This document shows, piece by piece, positions 26,077 to 36,867 of a DNA stretch of 64,000 bases. The DNA is from Eubacteriales bacterium (lineage in GTDB: Bacteria; Bacillota; Clostridia; Oscillospirales; Acutalibacteraceae), in the NCBI GenBank assembly GCA_047834405.1, contig CP181263.1, positions 1,494,618 to 1,558,617 on the forward strand. Direction: 5' to 3'. Each line of letters begins with the position of its first letter. Positions within the stretch are counted from its first letter, which is position 1. Made by a program: the position numbers and the translations under genes. The notes under the pieces are model-generated. The model was not told the origin of the DNA. It saw nothing but the letters and a program-made list of their open reading frames with translations, and searched no databases.

Positions 26077-26141
26077 TTGACTACAATGAAAATCAGAGTA
26101 TAATGAACTTGTAACTGGTTATGACGACATGATGTCATGAC
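26077..26141 (+). promoter_or_regulatory. sigA promoter and twin palindromes (candidate GntR operator)
   Basis: TTGACT-N16-TATAAT, then GTTATGAC-N8-GTCATGAC just upstream of the RBS. Confidence 0.65.
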
Positions 26142-26157
26142 GATAGGAGGAGCGCTT

Positions 26158-26886
26158 ATGGACCAAATTATGCTTCCAAAATATTATATTTTGAAGCAAA
26201 AGTTGATTGAAAAGATTGATCAGGAAGAGTTTAAAGCAAACGAGATGATTCCAAGCGAACGGGAATTAATCCAGCAGTACGATGTAAGCCGCATCACCGT
26301 TCGCAAAGCAATCGATGAGCTGGTGAATGAAGGATACCTGTACAAGGTGCAGGGCAAAGGAACGTTTGTGAAGTCGGATGCGTATAGCCAGGACTTAATT
26401 TCGATTACAAGCTGTACGCAGGATGTTATCAATCTGGGGATGACACCCAGCAGGAAAGTCATTTCGGCCTCTGTTCTTGAAGCGGATAACAAAAGATGCC
26501 GCAATTTGGAACTTGGAAAAAACGAAAAGGTATTCCGGCTGGAAAGGGTTTACTATGCGGACAGCGAACCCATCAACCATACCGTAACCTATCTTCCCTA
26601 TAAGCTGTTCCCCGGCATTGAGAAGTTCGATTTTTCAAAAGAATCCCTGTATAAAGTACTGGAAGAAAAGTATGATATTAAAATCACGAAAGCGAAGCGG
26701 TCTGTCGAAGCCATTCTGGCGAAAGACAAGATTGCCGAATATCTGGATGTGGAACCCGGAAAGCCCATTCTTCTGTTTGGCTGTATTACGTATGGCATTT
26801 CAAACGGAAAAGAAATCCCGATTGAAAATTTTAAATGCTGCTATCGCAGCGACAAATTTAAATTTTATATCAATCAGGTAAAGTGA
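26158..26886 (+). CDS. GntR (HutC/UTRA) transcriptional regulator
   Basis: Motifs IPSERELIQQYDVSRITVRKAIDELV and GKGTFV, plus a UTRA domain. Confidence 0.92.
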   Translation: MDQIMLPKYYILKQKLIEKIDQEEFKANEMIPSERELIQQYDVSRITVRKAIDELVNEGYLYKVQGKGTFVKSDAYSQDLISITSCTQDVINLGMTPSRKVISASVLEADNKRCRNLELGKNEKVFRLERVYYADSEPINHTVTYLPYKLFPGIEKFDFSKESLYKVLEEKYDIKITKAKRSVEAILAKDKIAEYLDVEPGKPILLFGCITYGISNGKEIPIENFKCCYRSDKFKFYINQVK

Positions 26887-26938: not shown

Positions 26939-28141
26939 ATGAAAAGAACATTGAAAAAGGTCTTATGTTTTGCAATGGCGGCAATAATGGGCCTGTCGGC
27001 TCTGGCCGGCTGCGGCAACAAAACGGCTGCTTCAAGCGGCGCGGCTTCCACTCCCGCAAAAAGCGACAAGAAAATCGCAATTGTCTGCGATGCCGCGGGA
27101 CAGAACGATAACGGCTACAATCAGGCCGCTGTAAACGGCGCAAAGGAAGCGGCGGAGAAGTTCGGCGTTCAGTACAAGGTAGTGGAACCCACTAACGGTG
27201 TTCCTGCAGCCCTGGAAGCGTTGGCGGATGACGGCTACGATGTAATCTTCAGCCTAGAATACGATTTCGACGCTTTAATCAAAGGCGTGGGCGGCGCAAA
27301 ACCGATCGCGGAAAGCTATCCGGATACCACATTTGTTGTATTCAACGATAATCCGAATGTGACTTCGAGCGGTGATGTAAAATACAAAAATGTTATTTCC
27401 GTTATGTTCGACGTTCACGAAGCCTCTTTCCTTGCAGGCAGCTTAAGCGTACTGGTCAATGAAAATGCCAAAACACTCTTCGCAGACGGATACAAGTTTA
27501 AGGACCCGGCCAGCGGCGGCCGTGCAATCGGCTTTATCGGCGGCACAAACTCCAACGGTATTACCGTATTCTCCTATGGCTATATCCAGGGCATCAACTA
27601 TATGGCCAAAGAACTCGGTGTAAAGTATGACTACTATGCAAAATACGATGCGGGCTTTACGGATTCCGCGCTCGGCAGCACAGTAGCGGGCACGTACTAT
27701 GATAAGGGCGCCAACATCGTTTACGGCGTGGCCGGCGGCGTCGGCGAAGGAATCACCTCCAAAGCAAAGGAAGTAGGCAGACTGGCAATTCAGGTCGATG
27801 CGAACAAAGACAATCAGCAGCCCGGTTACGTCCTTACAAGTGTTCTGAAAAATACCAACGTTCCGGTTGTGACGATCTGCACCGCGTTGGTTGAAAACAA
27901 ACTTTCTTCCATGGAGAACTTACAGTCTTATTCCCTGTCTTCGGGCGCCACCGGCATTACGGATTTGTCCGAAATCAGCAAGCATATCGCTTCCACCGAC
28001 GCGGCAAAAGCCAAGTGGGACGAAATCAAAGCAAAGATTGCCGAGATTGAAACCAAGATTGGTTCGGAGATCAAAGTTGTCAACGCACAGGCCGGCGAGA
28101 AGTTGGACGCGTCCGCCTGCCCGAATGTGAACATAAAATAA
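26939..28141 (+). CDS. BMP family ABC substrate-binding lipoprotein (nucleoside-type)
   Basis: Lipobox LAGC and motifs DNGYNQAA, HEASFLAG, GFIGG and AIQVDANK. Confidence 0.88.
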   Translation: MKRTLKKVLCFAMAAIMGLSALAGCGNKTAASSGAASTPAKSDKKIAIVCDAAGQNDNGYNQAAVNGAKEAAEKFGVQYKVVEPTNGVPAALEALADDGYDVIFSLEYDFDALIKGVGGAKPIAESYPDTTFVVFNDNPNVTSSGDVKYKNVISVMFDVHEASFLAGSLSVLVNENAKTLFADGYKFKDPASGGRAIGFIGGTNSNGITVFSYGYIQGINYMAKELGVKYDYYAKYDAGFTDSALGSTVAGTYYDKGANIVYGVAGGVGEGITSKAKEVGRLAIQVDANKDNQQPGYVLTSVLKNTNVPVVTICTALVENKLSSMENLQSYSLSSGATGITDLSEISKHIASTDAAKAKWDEIKAKIAEIETKIGSEIKVVNAQAGEKLDASACPNVNIK

Positions 28142-28170: not shown

Positions 28171-29715
28171 ATGAGCATCATTAAGACAATCGATCTAACC
28201 AAAAAATTCGGTGATTTTACTGCAAATGACAGGATTAACATTTCAGTAGAAAAACAGGAGATTAAATGTATAGTAGGCGAAAACGGCGCGGGGAAATCCA
28301 CTTTGATGAATATGCTTTATGGATTGCTACGTCCCACAAGCGGAAAAATATTGCTCCATGACAAAGAGACTGTGATCAATGGGCCAATGGACGCTATTGC
28401 ACACGGGTTGGGTATGGTGCACCAGCATTTTAAGCTGGTGCCCAGCCTTACCGTTTATGAAAACATCCTACTTGGTACGGAATTAAAAAAGTCTTCAAAA
28501 TCACCGATTATTGATCGAAAAAAGGAAATTGACGAAGTCACAAAGCTGATTGAAAAGTACAAGTTTGAATTAAATCCTACCGATAAAATCGAGGATATCT
28601 CCGTTGGCGGAAGGCAGCGGGTAGAAATCCTCAAGATGCTGTACCGCAACGTCGATATTCTGATCCTCGACGAACCGACCGCAGTGCTGACCCCGCAGGA
28701 AGTGGACGAGCTTTTTGTAAACCTGAAGGAACTGCGCGCACAGGGCAAGACGATCATTGTCATTACCCACAAGCTTCGTGAAGTGATGGAATTGAGCGAC
28801 AGCGTTACGGTTATCAAGCAGGGCAAGGTCGTAGGGAATGTTTTGACCAAGGACACTTCGGAAGAAGAACTGGCGCAAATGATGGTGGGCAGGGAAGTTG
28901 TTCTGACCGTACAGAATACGGCGGAAAACAAAGCATCGGAGGAAATTGCCTACCAGGTAGAGAATGTCTGCACGATTAATGACTACGGGAAGGAAGTGCT
29001 TCAGAATATTTCCTTCTGTGTGCATAAGGGCGAAATCCTTGGTGTGGCCGGTGTGGAAGGAAATGGCCAGTCGGAACTGGTGAAAGTACTGACAGGCCTC
29101 ATGAAAACGACCAAAGGTAAGGTTTCCATATATGGCAAGGACGTTACAGACAAGTGGCCGGACGAACTGCGGCAAAACGGCTTGGGGATTATTCCGGAGG
29201 ACCGGTATGCACAGGGCCTTTGTGGCACAATGAGTATTGCGGATAACTGTATCGCCGGTTATCACAACGCCCCGGATGTCTGCAAATTCGGTCTGCTGGA
29301 CAGAAAGAACATAAGCAGCAAGAGAGATCGTTTTATAAAGGATTTTGATATTCGTGTAGGCGATATCAACGGCAATGTTGGCCAGCTTTCCGGCGGAAAC
29401 GCGCAGAAAATTATTATTGCGAGAGAGTTTGAAAGCAATCCAAAGCTTTTAATAGCCTGCCAGCCAACGCGCGGCGTCGATATCGGCTCCATTGAATTTA
29501 TCCATAAACAGATTTTGAATTTCCGCAATAAAGGCAATGCGGTTCTGTTGATTTCTAGTGAGCTGTCGGAGGTTATGAGCCTGTCCGACCGGATTATCGT
29601 TATGTACAAAGGTAGGATTATCGGCGAGCTTTCTCCGAAAGAGGTCAGCAGATCTGAAATTGGCCTGCTGATGGCGGGAATTCAAAATAACAAGGCAAAA
29701 GGGGCATTTTTATGA
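28171..29715 (+). CDS. ABC transporter ATP-binding protein (two NBDs, nucleoside/sugar CUT2 type)
   Basis: Motifs GENGAGKST, MVHQHFKLV, LDEPTAVL, LSGGNAQK and QPTRGVDIG. Confidence 0.93.
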   Translation: MSIIKTIDLTKKFGDFTANDRINISVEKQEIKCIVGENGAGKSTLMNMLYGLLRPTSGKILLHDKETVINGPMDAIAHGLGMVHQHFKLVPSLTVYENILLGTELKKSSKSPIIDRKKEIDEVTKLIEKYKFELNPTDKIEDISVGGRQRVEILKMLYRNVDILILDEPTAVLTPQEVDELFVNLKELRAQGKTIIVITHKLREVMELSDSVTVIKQGKVVGNVLTKDTSEEELAQMMVGREVVLTVQNTAENKASEEIAYQVENVCTINDYGKEVLQNISFCVHKGEILGVAGVEGNGQSELVKVLTGLMKTTKGKVSIYGKDVTDKWPDELRQNGLGIIPEDRYAQGLCGTMSIADNCIAGYHNAPDVCKFGLLDRKNISSKRDRFIKDFDIRVGDINGNVGQLSGGNAQKIIIAREFESNPKLLIACQPTRGVDIGSIEFIHKQILNFRNKGNAVLLISSELSEVMSLSDRIIVMYKGRIIGELSPKEVSRSEIGLLMAGIQNNKAKGAFL

Positions 29716-30800
29716 AAAGACTGGATTTCGGGAAACGCCTTGTCAATTCGATTCTGCCTGTTTTGTTGGCGTTTGTGATTGGCGGAATCGTAATTTTGAT
29801 GATTGGCGAAAATCCCTTGGACACATACGGAATCCTGCTCGGTAAATCACTGTTTACCGTAAAAGGTTTTCTGAACACGCTGCATTATGCTTCGCCGCTT
29901 ATTCTGACCGGCCTTGCGATTGCTGTTACATTTAAAGCGAATATCTTCAACATGGGCGTGGAAGGCCAGCTGCTGCTTGGTGCGTTTTTCAGCGGTATTG
30001 TCGGTACCTCGCTTCCGGCCTCGCTGAATCCGGCAGCGGCCCAACTTATCTGCCTCGCGGTGGGCGTTATCTGCGGCGTCGTGTTCGCGCTGGTTCCGGC
30101 CATCCTCAAAGCGTACTGCCATGTAAATGAAATGGTTGTTACCCTGATGCTCAACTATGCGATGATCAAGGTGTTGGAATTCCTTGCAACTGGCGTGTTC
30201 CGCGACTACAGCTCCGGATACGTCTGCACGCCGATCATCAAGGAGAATGCAATGTTTCCCCGCTTTGGGAACTCCAAGCTTACGATGTTCTTTTTTATCG
30301 CGATTCTTATATTCATCGCTATGTATGTTGTCATTAACAAATCAAAGCTGGGTTATGAAATCACCGCCATTGGGAAAAATCCGGAATTCGCGGAAGCGAC
30401 CGGCATGAAAGTGCACAAGAAGATTATGATTATGATGGTTATCAGCGGCGCGCTTTCCGGCTTGGCCGGTGCGGGCTACATGATGAGCGAGCAGTTCAAA
30501 TACACCCTGAGCTTTTCCGGGAATCCGGGACTCGGCTGGGACGGTATGCTGATTGCCCTGCTGGGTGGCCATTCCCCCGTCGGTATTTTGGTTGCGGCAA
30601 TTTTCTATTCCGCTTTGAAGACCGGTGCGGACCATATCAATCTTTACTCGGCCGTTCCGAAAGAGATTGTTTCGGTTATTCAGGGTTTAATAATCCTGTT
30701 CCTTGCGGTGAAATTTGTAGATGAGCATACGAATATCCGGGAAAGGCTTTTCAGAAAAAAGGCCGGTAAACCCGAAACGGCCATAAGTGAGGAGGCGTAA
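29712..30800 (+). CDS. ABC transporter permease
   Basis: Motifs FNMGVEGQ, NEMVVTLMLNY and GWDGMLIALLG. Confidence 0.9.
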   Translation: MKRLDFGKRLVNSILPVLLAFVIGGIVILMIGENPLDTYGILLGKSLFTVKGFLNTLHYASPLILTGLAIAVTFKANIFNMGVEGQLLLGAFFSGIVGTSLPASLNPAAAQLICLAVGVICGVVFALVPAILKAYCHVNEMVVTLMLNYAMIKVLEFLATGVFRDYSSGYVCTPIIKENAMFPRFGNSKLTMFFFIAILIFIAMYVVINKSKLGYEITAIGKNPEFAEATGMKVHKKIMIMMVISGALSGLAGAGYMMSEQFKYTLSFSGNPGLGWDGMLIALLGGHSPVGILVAAIFYSALKTGADHINLYSAVPKEIVSVIQGLIILFLAVKFVDEHTNIRERLFRKKAGKPETAISEEA

Positions 30801-30801
30801 A

Positions 30802-31716
30802 ATGGACATCATAGGAAATATTTTATATGATACCATTTATCATAGTGCCCCTATTATTTTGTGCGTAATCGGCGGTATCTTTGCCTATAAGGCAAATGTG
30901 CTCAATATTGCGCTCGAAGGCATGATGCTCATCGGCGCGTTTGTTTCAACGCTTACCGCGTTTATGACGCAGAATATCGCGCTCGGAGTGCTGCTCGCCA
31001 TGCTGGCGGCGCTGGCCTTTGGAGTGGTTTTTTCCCTTATGGGGGTTACTTTCAAGGGGAATGTAATTATTATCGGCCTGGCAATCAACCTGCTTGCCTC
31101 GGCCATTGCAAAATTTGTTCTGGTTCGGATGAATACATCCAATATCACGCTGAGCTTTATGAATGTGGCTGATCTGAAGCTCCATATCCCGGTGGTCGAA
31201 AACATTCCGCTTGTGGGGAGCATTTTAAGCGGCCATCCGCTGATCACGTACATCAGCTTCCTCGGTATCTTTTTCATGTGGGTTTTGATGTATAAAACAC
31301 GGTTTGGCATCTATGTCCGTGTGGTCGGTGAAAATGAAGACGCGGCGAAGAGCATCGGACTGAAAACCGATTTTTATAAGTATGCCGCGATTTTAATCGG
31401 CGCTGTTTGCTGCGGGCTTGCGGGGGCAAACCTTTCTACCGAACGCCTAGGCCTTTTTACCAATGATATGACCGCCGGGCGGGGATTTATCGCAATTGCA
31501 GCAATCTACTGCGGCCAGGGGTCCCCAACTTTATCCGCCATATATGCCATTGTCTTCGGCCTGGCGCGCGCCCTCTCCGTCAATCTGAGCATCTATGCCG
31601 GTCCCGCGGCGGGACTGTTTGACGTTATCCCGTATGTCATTATGGTGTGTGTGCTTACGGTGGTATCTGTTTTGAAACATAAAAACAACAAGATAAGAGG
31701 TTTTAAGAATGAATGA
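30802..31716 (+). CDS. ABC transporter permease
   Basis: Motifs GVLNIALEG-like ANVLNIALEGMML and AGRGFIAIAA. Confidence 0.9.
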   Translation: MDIIGNILYDTIYHSAPIILCVIGGIFAYKANVLNIALEGMMLIGAFVSTLTAFMTQNIALGVLLAMLAALAFGVVFSLMGVTFKGNVIIIGLAINLLASAIAKFVLVRMNTSNITLSFMNVADLKLHIPVVENIPLVGSILSGHPLITYISFLGIFFMWVLMYKTRFGIYVRVVGENEDAAKSIGLKTDFYKYAAILIGAVCCGLAGANLSTERLGLFTNDMTAGRGFIAIAAIYCGQGSPTLSAIYAIVFGLARALSVNLSIYAGPAAGLFDVIPYVIMVCVLTVVSVLKHKNNKIRGFKNE

Positions 31717-32272
31717 GACAGCTCTTATTATTGTGGATATGGTAAAGGACTTTACGGATCCGGACGGTTTGGTGTTTTATCCGCAGAATCGCGAGATTCT
31801 GCCGCGGATTGCGCAGGTTTTGGAAAAATGCCGGGAAAAAGGGAAGCTGGTTATTTTCCTTCAGCACTGCAACCGTGCGGGCAAGCCGGATGAAAAGGCG
31901 GCGGCCATGCGCCCGAACTGTGTGGAAGGAACCAGCGGCATTGAAATCGACCCGATGCTGAAAGTGAATCCGGAGGATTATGTGATTCGAAAGCGCCGCT
32001 ACAGCGGTTTCTTCGGCACGGATCTTGACCTTGTTCTCCGTGAAAATCATATTAAAAATACCGTAATCGTCGGAACAAAAACCAACTGCTGCATTCGGGC
32101 CACCGTTACGGACGCGTTTTATCTGAATTACAATCCGATTGTCATCCGTGAATGTGTGGCGACTAATTCAGAAACAGTAAATGAAGTACACCTCAACGAT
32201 ATCCAGAAATATCTGGGTACGGTTGTGGACATGAAAACATTTTTTGAGAAATTGGATAACGGAGAATGGTAA
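31709..32272 (+). CDS. Isochorismatase-family cysteine hydrolase
   Basis: Catalytic triad present: IIVDM (Asp), IRKRRYSGF (Lys), GTKTNCC (Cys). Confidence 0.88.
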   Translation: MNETALIIVDMVKDFTDPDGLVFYPQNREILPRIAQVLEKCREKGKLVIFLQHCNRAGKPDEKAAAMRPNCVEGTSGIEIDPMLKVNPEDYVIRKRRYSGFFGTDLDLVLRENHIKNTVIVGTKTNCCIRATVTDAFYLNYNPIVIRECVATNSETVNEVHLNDIQKYLGTVVDMKTFFEKLDNGEW

Positions 32273-33228
32273 TGAAAAAATATGATGTAATTGTGAGCGG
32301 CTATGTGAGCATGGACCACATGCTGAAAATCAAAACGCCGGCGGCCGTTGGTTTTACCTCTCTCATCGAGAATAAGACGAATTCCAGAATTTATTACGGC
32401 GGCTGCTCCGTGAACATTGCATACGCACTATGCAAGCTTGGATTGAAGGCGATGCCGATTCTTCGCGTAGGCGGGGATTATGAGGAAATCGGATTTAAGA
32501 AATTCATGGAGGACGGCGGCGTTCCGCTGGACGCAACCTCCGTTATTGAAGAGGAAACAACGTCCGTTTGCTACCTGATTCAGGATAATAAAGGGCAGCA
32601 TATCACACTTTACTATACGGGCGCCATGGATGAGAAATATTCCTGTGAACTCAGCGACGACATATTTGAAAATACGAGCCTTGGAGTTATTACCGTCGCG
32701 GCACGTAAGGACAACGAGGAGTTTTACAGAAAGTGCCGCGCGCACAATGTGCCGATTGTTTTCGGTATGAAAGCGGACTTTGACGCCTTCCCGGAGCCGT
32801 TCCTCAAGGAACTGCTGCTGCACAGCAAGATTATCTTCACCAATGAATCGGAACGCGAAACGATTGAGAAGCTCCTTAACCTCAAATCGATTACAGATTT
32901 GTTTGCCCTTGGCGAGATGGAAATTATTGTGACAACATACGGGAAACAGGGAAGTACTTATTATCAGCGGAAGGCGGACGGCACGATCGACACCCAATGC
33001 ATTCCGATTTGTGACTGCACGAAGGTGGTGGACACCACCGGCTCCGGGGACGGTTATGTGGCGGGGTTCCTGTACGGCTACCTGCAAGGGCTGCCGATGG
33101 CGGATTGCTGCCGGATGGGCAGCACCCTCTCTTCCTTTATCATAGAAAAAGAAGGCTGCTGTACGAATGCGCCGACTGTGGAAGAGATCACAAGACGCTT
33201 TGAAAACTTTAAAAAATGCGCAATGTAA
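32272..33228 (+). CDS. PfkB family carbohydrate/nucleoside kinase
   Basis: Motifs GGCSVNIA, FTNESE and VDTTGSGDGY. Confidence 0.9.
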   Translation: MKKYDVIVSGYVSMDHMLKIKTPAAVGFTSLIENKTNSRIYYGGCSVNIAYALCKLGLKAMPILRVGGDYEEIGFKKFMEDGGVPLDATSVIEEETTSVCYLIQDNKGQHITLYYTGAMDEKYSCELSDDIFENTSLGVITVAARKDNEEFYRKCRAHNVPIVFGMKADFDAFPEPFLKELLLHSKIIFTNESERETIEKLLNLKSITDLFALGEMEIIVTTYGKQGSTYYQRKADGTIDTQCIPICDCTKVVDTTGSGDGYVAGFLYGYLQGLPMADCCRMGSTLSSFIIEKEGCCTNAPTVEEITRRFENFKKCAM

Positions 33229-33239
33229 GGAGACAAAAA

Positions 33240-33995
33240 ATGTCAACATTATATTTAGGAGCGGATACGTCAACGGTTGCCCCTTATGTTCTGTTTTCGG
33301 GCGACCCGTTCCGCGTGGAAGTTCTGAAAAAATATCTTGAAAACTCGCAGCATGTCGCCTTTAAACGGGAATTCAACACCTACACCGGTTCGTACAAGGG
33401 GGTGCCTGTTACGGTAACTTCTACGGGAATCGGCGCTCCCTCCGCGGCGATTGCCATGGAAGAAATGTATGAATCCGGCATGAAGGTGGCTGTCCGTATG
33501 GGTACGGTGATGGCCTTGCAGGATGATATGCTGGGGCATTTTATTATTCCGATTGCCGCCATGCGCCGCGAAAGCACCAGCAAGACCTATGTGGAAGAAA
33601 GCTATCCCGCGGTTGCCGATATCGAGCTGGTCAATATCATGAACCAGACGGTGACTTCTTTTGGAAAGCGTTACCTCAATGGCGTCAACTGCACTATGGA
33701 CGGCTTTTACAGCAAGATGCACGATTCTAAATTTTCCAAGGAATGCGGAATTGACATGCTCAAAACCTTTGAAGAATTAAAAAAGCTTCATGTAACCGGA
33801 ATCGATATGGAATCCTCGTGTATGCTGACGATCGGGCGGCTGATGGGTGTGAAAACCTGCATTGTTACCATGGCTACCGTGCTTGAGAATTTGAAGGAAG
33901 CGCTGGCCGGTCAGGACCGCGTTGATGCGGAAGACTTGCTGTGCCGCGTTGTTCTTGAGGGATTATACCGCTATCATACGCAAAAAGTGGAGTGA
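33240..33995 (+). CDS. Nucleoside phosphorylase (uridine phosphorylase/PNP family)
   Basis: Motifs GDPFR, REF, STGIGAPSAAI, RMGT, YPAVAD and DMES. Confidence 0.88.
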   Translation: MSTLYLGADTSTVAPYVLFSGDPFRVEVLKKYLENSQHVAFKREFNTYTGSYKGVPVTVTSTGIGAPSAAIAMEEMYESGMKVAVRMGTVMALQDDMLGHFIIPIAAMRRESTSKTYVEESYPAVADIELVNIMNQTVTSFGKRYLNGVNCTMDGFYSKMHDSKFSKECGIDMLKTFEELKKLHVTGIDMESSCMLTIGRLMGVKTCIVTMATVLENLKEALAGQDRVDAEDLLCRVVLEGLYRYHTQKVE

Positions 33996-34036: not shown

Positions 34037-34831
34037 ATGGACATCAGAGAAATTATTGCCTGTAGAAAAAGATTTGTCATCGGTATGGTTCACTGCCTTG
34101 CATTGCCCGGAACCCCCGGGTTTGCAGGCGACTGCGATAAAATCCTGAACCAGGCTGTTCAGGATGCCGTCACGCTTGAAAAAGCAGGCGTTGACGCGAT
34201 TATTGTTGAAAATATGGGGGACGACCCGTTTGCCGCCCTGTTGGACACTCCGCAGGTGGCCGCGCTTTCCGCCGCGACGGCTTTGGTAAAAAAAGCAGTG
34301 AAAATTCCGGTTGGCGTCGACGCGGCCTTTAACGACTGTGTTGCGTCTCTTTCCATCGCCAAAATTAACGGCTGTGACTTTGTGCGTATTCCGGTGTTTG
34401 TGGATACTGTTGAGTTTTACGGTGGAATCATTAACCCCTGCGCAAGACTCTGTATGCAGACCAGAAAAAATCTGGACGCGGAAAACATTATGATCCTTGC
34501 CGACGTTCAGGTAAAGCACACGAATATGGTGCTCCCGCAGGTGACGATTGAAGCGTCTGCAAAAGCCGCGGCAGGCTGCGGAGCGGAGGCCATTATCGTA
34601 ACCGGCTCCGCAATCGGTGTGGAAACCCCGCTTGAAATGATCCAACGCGTAAAGAAGGTTGTTAAGCTTCCGGTTATTGCGGGCAGCGGCGTCAATGCGC
34701 ACAATATCCGCGAACAGCTGGAGATTGCGGACGGCGCGGTGATCGGCAGCAGCCTGAAGAAAGACGGTGTGCTGACGAATCCGATTTCTTACGACCTTGT
34801 ACGCGAAGTGCTTGACGGACTTAACAAATAA
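34037..34831 (+). CDS. BtpA/SgcQ family TIM-barrel protein
   Basis: Motifs IGMVHC, IIVENMGD.PF, ADVQVKH, IVTG, GSGV and DGAVIGSSLKKDG. Confidence 0.88.
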   Translation: MDIREIIACRKRFVIGMVHCLALPGTPGFAGDCDKILNQAVQDAVTLEKAGVDAIIVENMGDDPFAALLDTPQVAALSAATALVKKAVKIPVGVDAAFNDCVASLSIAKINGCDFVRIPVFVDTVEFYGGIINPCARLCMQTRKNLDAENIMILADVQVKHTNMVLPQVTIEASAKAAAGCGAEAIIVTGSAIGVETPLEMIQRVKKVVKLPVIAGSGVNAHNIREQLEIADGAVIGSSLKKDGVLTNPISYDLVREVLDGLNK

Positions 34832-34849: not shown

Positions 34850-35995
34850 ATGATGAGACCAATGAAATTAGCGGGCAGCGAGCTGATGTTCGGAGCGAAC
34901 TGCCTTGAATATATTAAATCCGTTCCCTGTAAAAAGGCGTTCATCGTTGTGGGCGGCAAGAGCATGGAGCGCAGCGGGATCCTGGCAAAAGTCGAAGGGT
35001 ATTTTCATGAAAATGGTGTTCAGACAACCGTATTCCAGGGTGTGGAACCGGACCCTTGCTTTTCAACCGTGAAGAGGGGCGCCGAACAAATGAAGGAATT
35101 CCAGCCGGATATGATCGTGGCTTTGGGCGGCGGTTCGGCAATGGACGCGGCGAAAACCATGTGGGTGTACTATGAACACCCGGAGCTGACCACGTTGGAG
35201 CAAGTCCTTACCGCGAATCCGTTCCCGAAGCTCCGTCGGAAAGCCCGCTTTATGTGCATCCCATCCACCAGCGGCACCGCAAGTGAGGTTTCCCGCTCGG
35301 TTGTTATTTCCGACGATGAAACAGGCATGAAGCACGGCTTGGGAAACATGGAAATGATGCCGGATATCGCAATCTGCGATCCGGAGGTTACCGCCACCAT
35401 GCCGCCCCATATTACGGCGGAAACCGGTATGGACGCATTGACCCATGCAATTGAAGCGCTGGTTTCCAATCGGGCGAATTACCTTTCCAACATCCTTGCG
35501 CGCGCGGCGGCAATCGATATTGTCAATACTCTGCCGAAAGCATATCAAGACGGCAAAGACATGGCGGCGCGTGAAACCATGCTGAATGCTTCCATGACGG
35601 CGGGCCTCGCGTTTACGAATGTATCCCTTGGCATCGTTCACTCCATGGCACACACACTGGGCGGATTCTTCCATGTTTCCCACGGCCTTGGCGATGCGAT
35701 CGTTCTGCCGTATATTATTGACTTCAACAGCGGAAATCCGGAAGCAAAAGCCGTGTATGACCACTTGGCTGCCGCTTTGGGTGGTACGGACCTTGCGGAG
35801 ATTGTCCGGAACCTGAATAAGAAAATAGGCATTCCCGCCTGTGTGAGAGAAGTTGTGAAGGACGAAGCCGCGTATACCTCCCAATTAGAGGAAATGGCCG
35901 AAACCGCCAAAGCGGACGGCTGTACCAAGACAAACCCGATCATCCCGACCATCCCGCAGTTCGTGGAACTGTTCAAGAAAGTGTATCATGGATAA
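34850..35995 (+). CDS. Iron-containing alcohol dehydrogenase
   Basis: Motifs ALGGGSAMD, IPSTSGTASE, GMDALTHAIE, VHSMAH and HG metal ligands. Confidence 0.92.
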   Translation: MMRPMKLAGSELMFGANCLEYIKSVPCKKAFIVVGGKSMERSGILAKVEGYFHENGVQTTVFQGVEPDPCFSTVKRGAEQMKEFQPDMIVALGGGSAMDAAKTMWVYYEHPELTTLEQVLTANPFPKLRRKARFMCIPSTSGTASEVSRSVVISDDETGMKHGLGNMEMMPDIAICDPEVTATMPPHITAETGMDALTHAIEALVSNRANYLSNILARAAAIDIVNTLPKAYQDGKDMAARETMLNASMTAGLAFTNVSLGIVHSMAHTLGGFFHVSHGLGDAIVLPYIIDFNSGNPEAKAVYDHLAAALGGTDLAEIVRNLNKKIGIPACVREVVKDEAAYTSQLEEMAETAKADGCTKTNPIIPTIPQFVELFKKVYHG

Positions 35996-36025
35996 AAAGA
36001 AATATACAGAAGGAATGAAAATGCT

Positions 36026-36742
36026 ATGAATTTAATCTGCTACCTATCAAATGGATATCCAACGATTGAGGACAGCATCGAGATGGCCAGGACCTACGTG
36101 GAAGCTGGCTGTGATATGATCGAAATTGACTTCCCTTCTCACAACCCTTTTTTGGAAAGCGAGTATATTTCCAACCGTATGGCAGAGGCATTAAAGAACT
36201 GCGATGATTTCGAGAAATACATGGAGGGCATGATCAAGGTTAAGAAGCTGCTTCCCGATACAAACTTTATCCTCATGGTGTATGAAAACACCGTTGAAGA
36301 AATCGGTGTGGAGAAATTTATCCGGTTCTGTCTTGACAATGATTACCGTGATATTATTCTTGTCGGTTTAAAAGATGAAACGATCAAGAATCAGTTTATT
36401 AAAGAAGGCATTCGTGTCAGTTGTTACGTACAGTTCCATTTACCGGAGCAGGAAGTAGAATATGCGCTGAAGTCCAACGGCTTTACCTATATGCAGGCGG
36501 TGCCGGCCCCGGGACAGGCAACCAAGGAACACCCGACTTTGAAATCCTGTATACAGTATCTGCGGGAACGCGGTTTGAAGAACCCGATTTACTGCGGCGT
36601 AGGAGTACATAATCCGAAGGATGCGGCAATGGTAAAGGCGGCGGGCGGCGACGGAGTGTTTGTAGGTAGCACCATTCTGAAACTGCATAACGATAAGCCG
36701 GCGCTCATGGCCAAAATCCGTGAGTTTAAGGCAGAATGTTGA
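36026..36742 (+). CDS. Tryptophan synthase alpha-like TIM-barrel, stand-alone and divergent
   Basis: Aligns by eye to TrpA: YL..GYP, GCDMIEIDFP (Glu49), CGVGV and DGVFVGS phosphate site. No trpB nearby. Confidence 0.78.
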   Translation: MNLICYLSNGYPTIEDSIEMARTYVEAGCDMIEIDFPSHNPFLESEYISNRMAEALKNCDDFEKYMEGMIKVKKLLPDTNFILMVYENTVEEIGVEKFIRFCLDNDYRDIILVGLKDETIKNQFIKEGIRVSCYVQFHLPEQEVEYALKSNGFTYMQAVPAPGQATKEHPTLKSCIQYLRERGLKNPIYCGVGVHNPKDAAMVKAAGGDGVFVGSTILKLHNDKPALMAKIREFKAEC

Positions 36743-36824
36743 TTTTAAGCGAATTCCTGCATGAAAGAGAGTCATCCATTTGCACCTATAACGCCTTTTA
36801 AAAACAATCAAAAAAGAGAAAGAA

Positions 36825-36867
36825 AGCCGTACCGGTATCCCTTGATGGATACCGGTACGGCTCTTTT
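36825..36867. terminator. Bidirectional terminator ending the catabolic operon and the fliDST transcript
   Basis: 16-bp perfect inverted repeat AGCCGTACCGGTATCC/GGATACCGGTACGGCT. Confidence 0.88.

Follow-up and report, generated by a model that had tools for sequence, protein, structure and literature searches.

The TrpA-like gene of the window

The DNA described here is a stretch of 64,000 nucleotides (nt), hereafter the window, from an Eubacteriales bacterium of the Acutalibacteraceae (positions 1,494,618 to 1,558,617 of the forward strand of contig CP181263.1, GenBank assembly GCA_047834405.1), and our subject is a gene within it, at 36026..36742 on the + strand, that encodes a relative of TrpA, the alpha subunit of tryptophan synthase. 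The gene stands at the end of a series of eleven that all run in one direction. It begins with ATG, specifies 238 amino acids (aa) and is separated by 30 nt from the stop codon of the preceding gene, which encodes an Fe-dependent alcohol dehydrogenase (Fe-ADH); within this gap a ribosome-binding site can be read (AGAAGGAA, 36008..36015, + strand), with its AAGGA motif 11 nt 5' of the ATG. On the other side an 18-bp hairpin at 36823..36864, assigned to neither strand, lies between the TrpA-like gene and a convergent downstream gene and is taken to be a terminator shared by the two. We assign the product to one of two types, the E-type, of a short clade of TrpA relatives and propose that it is a carbon-carbon (C-C) lyase.

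The protein is a member of the Pfam family Trp_syntA (PF00290), to which it scores 90.4 bits against a gathering cut-off of 27, and it falls under the cut-off of the TrpA equivalog model TIGR00262 (87.2 versus 102.35 bits). With 54 homologues in the input, AlphaFold2 gave a model with a mean predicted local distance difference test score (pLDDT) of 96.7 and a predicted template-modelling score (pTM) of 0.92, and the best matches of this model in a Foldseek search of the PDB were all tryptophan synthase alpha chains, at a template-modelling (TM) score of 0.87 and 18-27% identity. The earlier note on this DNA, made from the letters alone, was right to call the protein short: it is about 20-30 residues shorter than canonical TrpA, lacking helix alpha-0 at the N terminus and a single residue of loop 6. 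Open reading frame 36026-36742 is a real gene, and judged by the model its product folds as a TrpA barrel.

The active site

As the reference for the active site we used the Salmonella typhimurium alpha chain (St), the sequence of which was checked to be identical to PDB 1A50 chain A, aligned with 116 close homologues of the window protein, with representatives of 49 wider-clade clusters and with 49 TrpA sequences of greater length. In TrpA, the hydroxyl beside the bond to be broken gives up its proton to Glu49, which also protonates the leaving carbon; Asp60 assists the leaving group, and the phosphate, three carbons away, is held by backbone amides of the glycine loops. The counterpart of Glu49 is Glu33, within the motif MIEIDFP in which the earlier note had placed it, and is found in all 116 close homologues; its codon is the first of three (Glu33-Ile34-Asp35, 36122..36130, + strand) at the end of strand beta-2, and the third encodes an Asp where St TrpA has Gly51. 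Directly after these codons comes loop 2 (FPSHNPFLESE, 36131..36163, + strand), in which Asn40 corresponds to St Asp56 and Glu44 to St Asp60. The residue at position 44 is Glu in 116 of 116 close homologues and Glu or Asp in 47 of the 49 wider-clade clusters, and the position of Asn40 holds Asn in 76 and Asp in 40 of the close homologues. The earlier note had the letters of this loop right, NPFLESE standing for the DPLADGP of TrpA, and went astray in concluding that catalytic Asp60 was lost: Glu44 lies opposite Asp60, and the residue that became Asn is Asp56. In this alignment the catalytic carboxylate is retained, Asp60 being replaced conservatively by a Glu with a longer side chain.

The phosphate site is likewise recognizable in the two segments, GVGV and VFVGS, that had been picked out for it. 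Gly191 and Gly193 of the first (residues 191-194, 36596..36607, + strand) align with St Gly211 and Gly213, and Gly214-Ser215 of the second (residues 211-215; the two codons at 36665..36670, + strand) with St Gly234-Ser235. Among the close homologues Gly191, Val192, Gly193 and Gly214 are invariant and Ser215 is present in 114 of 116, and a HMMER pairwise alignment with the ancestral TrpA of PDB entry 5EY5 gave the same register.

What has changed is the surroundings of these residues. Relative to St TrpA, Gly51 has become Asp35, Ile153 Tyr134, Pro155 Gln136, Leu177 Gln157 and Phe212 Val192, and all of the new residues are invariant among the close homologues save Gln136 (115 of 116). As a result of these substitutions the hydrophobic indole pocket has turned polar, and to judge from its residues it would no longer be suited to indole. 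In loop 6, St Thr183 is lost (a variable position, Pro162 in the window protein) and Gly181 is deleted in 106 of the 116 homologues; in TrpA these two residues, together with Asp56 of loop 2, serve closure of the site and signalling to TrpB. The active site is thus remodelled, as had been proposed, at the indole pocket and loop 6 and not at the place originally named.

The tryptophan pathway in the genome and its relatives

The source genome is a single contig of 2.53 Mb, 99.3% complete, in which the TrpA-like gene is the only real PF00290 match. The earlier note had observed that the window holds no trp genes; this was confirmed, and a search of the whole genome also found no indole-3-glycerol phosphate synthase (IGPS, TrpC), phosphoribosylanthranilate isomerase (PRAI, TrpF), TrpD or chorismate-binding TrpE. 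In the absence of these four, no indole-3-glycerol phosphate is made. Canonical TrpB is absent from the genome as well, the best score to the TrpB model being 131 bits against a cut-off of 392. The gene with that score encodes a 'TrpB-like PLP enzyme' of the TrpB2 type (TIGR01415, 576 bits; G000:C1:188737-189783) and lies 1.34 Mb from the TrpA-like gene. It stands alone, with no other tryptophan-pathway gene in the genome, and presumably serves indole salvage.

In 41 related genomes PF00290 scores are bimodal: canonical TrpA scores 280-310 bits and the paralogue described here 84-108 bits, the window's own gene standing at 94 bits in this comparison. The earlier note had suggested a check for a separate trpBA, and the outcome was divided: the genome itself has none, and four relatives (G012, G013, G017 and G033) carry both kinds of gene, the high-scoring trpA abutting a canonical trpB (650+ bits). 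In G012, G013 and G017 a weak Trp_syntA match such as BtpA gives is found about 1.3-2 kb from the paralogue, as in the window, and in G012 and G033 the paralogue is present without any TrpB2. Because it coexists with trpBA and occurs without TrpB2, the paralogue is neither a replacement alpha subunit nor tied to TrpB2. In another genome of the same genus the paralogue (G008:C1:46559-47254) contains an in-frame TGA, and this copy may be a pseudogene or reflect a sequencing error.

These results bear on the possibility that the gene provides, after all, the true tryptophan synthase alpha subunit of this genome, or a lyase for indole-3-glycerol phosphate, as a partner of the TrpB2-type enzyme. 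That it is the only PF00290 gene in a genome that does have a TrpB2-type gene speaks for such a role. We give the idea almost no credence in view of the missing supply of indole-3-glycerol phosphate, the distance to the TrpB2 gene and the paralogues that occur without TrpB2 or beside a canonical trpBA pair, to which may be added the loss or variability of Thr183, Gly181 and Asp56 and the score below the TIGR00262 cut-off. The TrpA-like gene has no part in tryptophan synthesis, and the view that a stand-alone TrpA-family enzyme has here been recruited outside that pathway holds good: the partnership with TrpB that the earlier note had named as grounds for giving it up has no basis in a genome with neither a canonical TrpB nor a supply of indole-3-glycerol phosphate. 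Set against TrpA as represented by PF00290, TIGR00262 and the structures 1A50 and 2EKC (Aquifex), the protein is about 20-27% identical and shares the (beta-alpha)8 fold, the catalytic Glu of strand beta-2, a loop 2 carboxylate and the Gly-x-Gly and Gly-Ser loops; it differs in having Glu for Asp60, Asn or Asp for Asp56 and a polar pocket, in having lost Thr183, Gly181 and helix alpha-0, in never adjoining trpB, in being found in genomes without a tryptophan pathway and in belonging to a separate clade.

A short clade of TrpA relatives

A word-indexed protein search returned 627 proteins, and the best 120 of these are 59-87% identical to the window protein and almost all 237-241 aa long; where a source gives them a name, it is 'tryptophan synthase subunit alpha'. 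When 1.84 billion cluster representatives were searched exhaustively with HMMER, 56 clusters were returned at E<=1e-30, which grade down to about 25% identity, where canonical TrpA (260-280 aa) begins. The earlier note had called for a phylogeny against canonical TrpA, and in a tree of 104 sequences inferred by maximum likelihood, 55 rows of about 226-259 aa form a short clade that stands apart from canonical and other long TrpA proteins, with support of 99 on both sides by the Shimodaira-Hasegawa-like approximate likelihood ratio test (SH-aLRT). The window protein has the marks of the short clade, namely its length, the lack of helix alpha-0 and the place in the tree, and it carries the E-type signature of Glu33, Glu or Asp at 44, Tyr155, Gln157 and Cys190. 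By these sequence comparisons the gene belongs to an uncharacterised sister family of TrpA.

Two types of protein can be distinguished within the short clade. In 32 clusters, the E-type, the catalytic Glu, Glu or Asp at 44, Tyr155, Gln157 and the phosphate site are intact; taken as 50%-identity clusters, these have Glu at 33 in 32 and Glu or Asp at 44 in 31, with Gly191 in 29, Gly193 in 31 and Gly214 in 31. In 15 other clusters, the Q-type, Gln takes the place of the catalytic Glu, and Tyr155, Gly191 and Ser215 are lost. Wherever the context was read, the Q-type gene lies in tandem just upstream of an E-type gene, an arrangement that suggests a catalytic subunit with a degenerate, pseudo-enzyme partner. 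Tandem TrpA-like pairs, in which the downstream copy is intact and the phosphate site of the upstream copy is degraded, were seen in some cassettes (L025, 9267-10726; L026, 10001-11460; L027, 1839-3298).

The existence of the Q-type clusters within the same clade, and their tandem arrangement with an E-type copy, raise the question of whether the window protein could be a non-catalytic scaffold or regulatory subunit like that described for Chlamydia TrpA. We consider this very improbable: the window protein is of the E-type, its catalytic and phosphate-site residues are invariant, and its gene is present in single copy, as are those of all 80 species loci that were fetched.

The operon and its conservation

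The ten genes that precede the TrpA-like gene, all on the + strand, would encode an uptake system and a set of enzymes. The first three, named from orthologues in the same order, are a putative GntR-type (GntR/UTRA) regulator (26137-26886), a putative BMP-type binding lipoprotein (26939-28141) and a putative ABC ATPase (28171-29715), and they are followed by two permeases recognized by Pfam (29712-31716). Next come an isochorismatase-family cysteine hydrolase of the amidase type (31709-32272, PF00857), with nearest solved relatives that include carbamoylsarcosine amidase-related proteins, pyrazinamidase/nicotinamidase and RutB; a PfkB kinase (32266-33228), of which the nearest solved relative is the Methanocaldococcus jannaschii nucleoside kinase MJ0406; and a Udp-like nucleoside phosphorylase (33216-33995, PF01048), with uridine phosphorylases as its best solved relatives. 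A barrel of the BtpA/SgcQ family (34037-34831, PF03437 at 220 bits) and the Fe-ADH (34850-35995, PF00465 and PF25137) complete the series. The Fe-ADH, which we propose to be the reductase of the aldehyde product, has as its nearest NCBIfam models the C-terminal half of AdhE, ErcA and lactaldehyde reductase, each below its cut-off; in this comparison it is closest to acetaldehyde and lactaldehyde reductases. The BtpA reading frame was listed from a GTG at 33992 (279 aa), and since 39 homologues begin at the equivalent of the ATG at 34037 (MDIRE, about 264 aa), translation probably leaves out the 15 additional residues at the N terminus.

Two further BtpA genes occur elsewhere in the genome (G000:C1:1661448-1662209 and 481041-481808; L117 and L118), in clusters that contain no ADH or TrpA-like gene. 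One of these clusters includes a Cof-type HAD phosphatase, a SIS-domain protein of the size of FrlB, an FrlC-like AP_endonuc_2 protein, an amino-acid permease and a GntR/UTRA regulator, and is a frl-like cluster for Amadori compounds that is without the FrlD kinase; the other comprises an FGGY kinase, a Cof-type HAD protein and a GntR/UTRA regulator. From this it would seem that several clusters headed by a GntR/UTRA regulator make use of BtpA as a general enzyme for sugar phosphates.

One genome per species was scanned with an 18-sequence alignment as the query, which gave 167 relatives; the best 80 loci were analysed, 65 of them with full upstream DNA. The complete enzyme set is present in 64 of these 65 fully covered loci, in a cassette of GntR, BMP-ABC importer, isochorismatase-type amidase, PfkB, Udp-like phosphorylase, BtpA, Fe-ADH and TrpA-like gene, so that the operon context is obligate, with the TrpA-like gene at the end of the cassette; the Fe-ADH adjoins it in 64 of the 65 and stands directly before it in 62. 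Most of the best 80 loci are from Bacillota (68), the others being from Actinomycetota (7), Chloroflexota (2), Spirochaetota (2) and Pseudomonadota (1), and the nearest orthologue among the relatives, at 97% identity, is that of Caproiciproducens galactitolivorans. The same gene order was read in Clostridium botulinum, in metagenome-assembled genomes (MAGs) of an Atopobiaceae member and a Treponema, on a scaffold from a gut metagenome (its TrpA-like protein is recorded by NCBI from Faecalicatena too) and on one further metagenome contig. In two metagenome contigs, one of them this gut scaffold (L010, 11154-15701; L011, 11030-14166), the cassette is followed by a Zn-ADH, a DeoC-type aldolase, an FGGY kinase and a 2-hydroxyacid dehydrogenase, which were not seen in other lineages.

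More distant members of the clade are found in variants of this arrangement. A 43%-identical member occurs in the same cassette with two tandem TrpA-like genes, and another variant combines the TrpA-like gene with a mannose-family phosphotransferase system (PTS), a beta-lactamase-fold hydrolase and an Fe-ADH. In a distant lineage the TrpA-like gene is followed, in this order, by UxaC, a regulator, RpiB, an AP_endonuc_2 isomerase, a BMP-ABC importer, an isochorismatase and an aldehyde:ferredoxin oxidoreductase (AOR), with no ADH or BtpA gene within the stretch read. Fusions of Fe-ADH and TrpA-like domains also exist in nature, in P0137 (630 aa, from a metagenome, beside UxaC) and P0271 (637 aa, from Clostridium sp. 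AM58-1XD), and since their TrpA-like domains are 76% identical, the fusion has persisted through divergence. In a third protein, P0272 (433 aa; on 7 contigs, the longest of 848 kb), about 7 residues link an orthologue of the isochorismatase (76% identity) to one of the TrpA-like protein (60%), counterparts of the first and last enzymes of the cassette; it could equally well be a fusion with a function or the outcome of an in-frame loss of the four intervening genes, and we give it little weight. The contigs of P0138 and P0156 were too short for any neighbours to be read. Across the loci four elements recur, not all of them in each: an uptake system, phosphorylation by a kinase or PTS, a hydrolase, and the TrpA-like gene together with an aldehyde-consuming enzyme.

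Proposed function and its alternatives

Taken together, these observations lead us to think that the protein is probably a catalytically competent lyase of the short TrpA-like clade and the last enzyme of an operon for the breakdown of nucleoside-type compounds, in which it would cleave a sugar phosphate to give a triose phosphate together with a small aldehyde; the type of reaction, its products and the order of the steps are what we infer. A retro-aldolase is the most economical reading because the Glu/carboxylate pair and the phosphate site are invariant and the Fe-ADH is adjacent or fused. An aldehyde is suggested as the shared intermediate by the aldehyde reductase in most clusters and the aldehyde oxidoreductase in another, and the Fe-ADH::TrpA-like fusions place the origin of that aldehyde at the TrpA-like step. 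Since the variant with UxaC, RpiB and AOR has no BtpA in the stretch read, the link to an aldehyde appears to go with the TrpA-like gene and not with BtpA.

The operon, as we envisage it, would import a riboside-like compound through the BMP-type ABC system, and the amidase, the PfkB kinase, the Udp-like phosphorylase and the BtpA barrel would process it. In the final cleavage Glu33 would act on the hydroxyl next to the bond to be cut, by the same acid-base chemistry as in TrpA, with Glu44 assisting on the leaving group and the glycine loops holding the terminal phosphate of the substrate. A substrate X-CH(OH)-CH(OH)-CH2-OPO3 would undergo retro-aldol cleavage to glyceraldehyde-3-phosphate and X-H, where X-H would not be indole and, because an aldehyde-handling enzyme is the constant partner, would most simply be a small aldehyde, which the adjacent Fe-ADH would reduce to the alcohol. 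The simplest case would be glycolaldehyde from an open-chain aldopentose-5-phosphate, C3-C5 of which would share the D-erythro configuration of indole-3-glycerol phosphate, and a substituted analogue derived from a modified ribose would fit as well.

The logic of such an operon has a precedent in the haloarchaeal non-carboxylating pentose bisphosphate pathway (Sato et al. 2022, PMC9700705), which converts the ribose of nucleosides to a triose phosphate and a C2 alcohol by way of a Udp-type nucleoside phosphorylase, a PfkB-type kinase, an aldolase and an aldehyde reductase of the Fe-ADH family, the first two of these families supplying ribose-1,5-bisphosphate. The window operon has phosphorylase, kinase and Fe-ADH of the same families and differs in that the ribose-1,5-bisphosphate (R15P) isomerase (IF-2B family) of that pathway (PMC9700705) was not found anywhere in the genome, and in that the cassette is without its HAD phosphatase for RuBP and its class II FucA-type aldolase for Ru1P, having BtpA and the TrpA-fold enzyme in their place and an amidase in addition. 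Although the families are represented, all equivalog scores of the window genes lie far below the cut-offs (69.6 versus 330 for the ribose-1-phosphate kinase and 27.8 versus 550 for the glycolaldehyde reductase). The dihydroxyacetone phosphate (DHAP) shunt and the anaerobic fucose route (FucA/FucO) resemble the proposed scheme in that a sugar-phosphate aldolase is followed by an Fe-ADH that disposes of the aldehyde; their aldolases, however, are metal-dependent class II enzymes of an unrelated fold that release DHAP, whereas a TrpA fold is found here and the predicted product is glyceraldehyde-3-phosphate.

The earlier note had inferred a retro-aldolase acting on either a non-indole heteroaryl or a sugar phosphate, and it is the latter option that fits better, because the coupling to ADH or AOR implies an aldehyde as the co-product. 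The former would make the protein a lyase in the manner of plant BX1/IGL (PDB 1TJR), cleaving a heteroaryl-glycerol phosphate to glyceraldehyde-3-phosphate and a nitrogen heterocycle, for example a modified base that BtpA had moved onto the sugar in a step like that of TrpF or HisA. BX1 is also a TrpA-family lyase independent of TrpB, and its sequence matches the window protein at E 4e-10. It keeps the canonical catalytic residues, however, and still cleaves indole-3-glycerol phosphate, which the window genome, lacking IGPS, cannot make, and the gene here lies in a catabolic uptake operon. The retention of the full TrpA dyad, including the carboxylate that in TrpA binds the indole N-H, is in keeping with a heteroaryl substrate, as are the remote relationship of BtpA to the barrels of HisF, PriA and IGPS and a polar pocket that could take a hydrogen-bonding heterocycle. 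We nevertheless hold such a substrate to be quite unlikely, for it would leave unexplained both the aldehyde reductase as constant neighbour or fusion partner and the variant that has AOR and no ADH in the stretch read, and in most cassettes a phosphorylase is already at hand to remove the base.

A different division of labour, in which BtpA is the aldolase and the TrpA-like protein carries out an isomerisation, epimerisation or elimination of a sugar phosphate without cleaving a C-C bond, seems to us unlikely. The ribulose-phosphate-binding barrel superfamily is chemically diverse and has other members that perform such reactions; hexulose-phosphate synthase and KDPGal aldolase are among the weak matches of BtpA; and in some variants the isomerases UxaC and RpiB accompany the TrpA-like gene, with no BtpA in the stretch read. 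That last variant cuts both ways, since in it the TrpA-like gene is found with an aldehyde-oxidising enzyme where no BtpA was read, and the two additional BtpA genes of the genome sit in clusters that have neither ADH nor TrpA-like gene. To our knowledge, moreover, every characterised member of PF00290 is a retro-aldol lyase.

Several points weigh against the cleavage of a sugar phosphate by the TrpA-like protein as we propose it. The protein has no invariant lysine at the mouth of the barrel, and enolate-forming aldolases normally rely on a Schiff-base lysine or a metal; the carboxylates Asp35 and Glu87 are invariant in the close subfamily only and vary across the wider E-type clade, and so would not give the clade a common means of stabilising an aldehyde enolate. 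BtpA, to which the scheme assigns a step, gave an AlphaFold2 model (pLDDT 91.6) that found only remote barrels in a fold search of the PDB (GGGPS, HisF and NanE, at TM scores of about 0.6), and a sequence search of the PDB with BtpA gave nothing better than such remote fold matches. The phosphorylase is absent from the locus of a 26%-identical member, which consists of two isochorismatases, PfkB, BtpA, two TrpA-like genes and an ADH, and the genome has a transketolase, which leaves a special route for ribose without explanation; transaldolase was not found in the genome, and the presence of the one and absence of the other decide nothing about a bypass. A full-text search of the literature found no publication on the TrpA-like subfamily or its cassette, and the actual substrate may be quite unlike a pentose phosphate. 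As to the carboxylates, we have kept in mind the possibility that Glu33, Asp35 and Glu87 form a new divalent-metal site, as in a class II-like aldolase, and do not claim it, Asp35 and Glu87 not being clade-wide.

Implications

Databases label hundreds of these genes 'tryptophan synthase subunit alpha', which gives a false hint of a capacity to make tryptophan; hosts with genes so labelled include the gut commensals Coprococcus comes, Anaerotruncus colihominis, Blautia, Roseburia and Olsenella, as well as Clostridium botulinum. Beyond the matter of annotation we put forward, tentatively and with more reserve than the reaction itself, the idea that recruitment of the TrpA fold has produced a sugar-phosphate aldolase that works without a Schiff base and without a class II metal site, and that together with BtpA it may constitute a new bacterial route by which the (possibly modified) ribose of nucleosides is split into glyceraldehyde-3-phosphate and a C2 aldehyde. 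Such a route would be a counterpart of the haloarchaeal pathway built from unrelated enzymes, and would have spread by transfer across at least five phyla of anaerobes.

We know of no reaction of the TrpA fold other than the cleavage of indole-3-glycerol phosphate, and if the proposal is true this would be the first non-indole reaction for that fold and would provide the first enzymatic context for the BtpA/SgcQ family. A Glu/Glu retro-aldolase on the TrpA scaffold would then offer, in nature, the sort of repurposing for which directed evolution is usually employed, and the anaerobes of gut, rumen and digesters would possess a hitherto unrecognised route for compounds of the nucleoside type.

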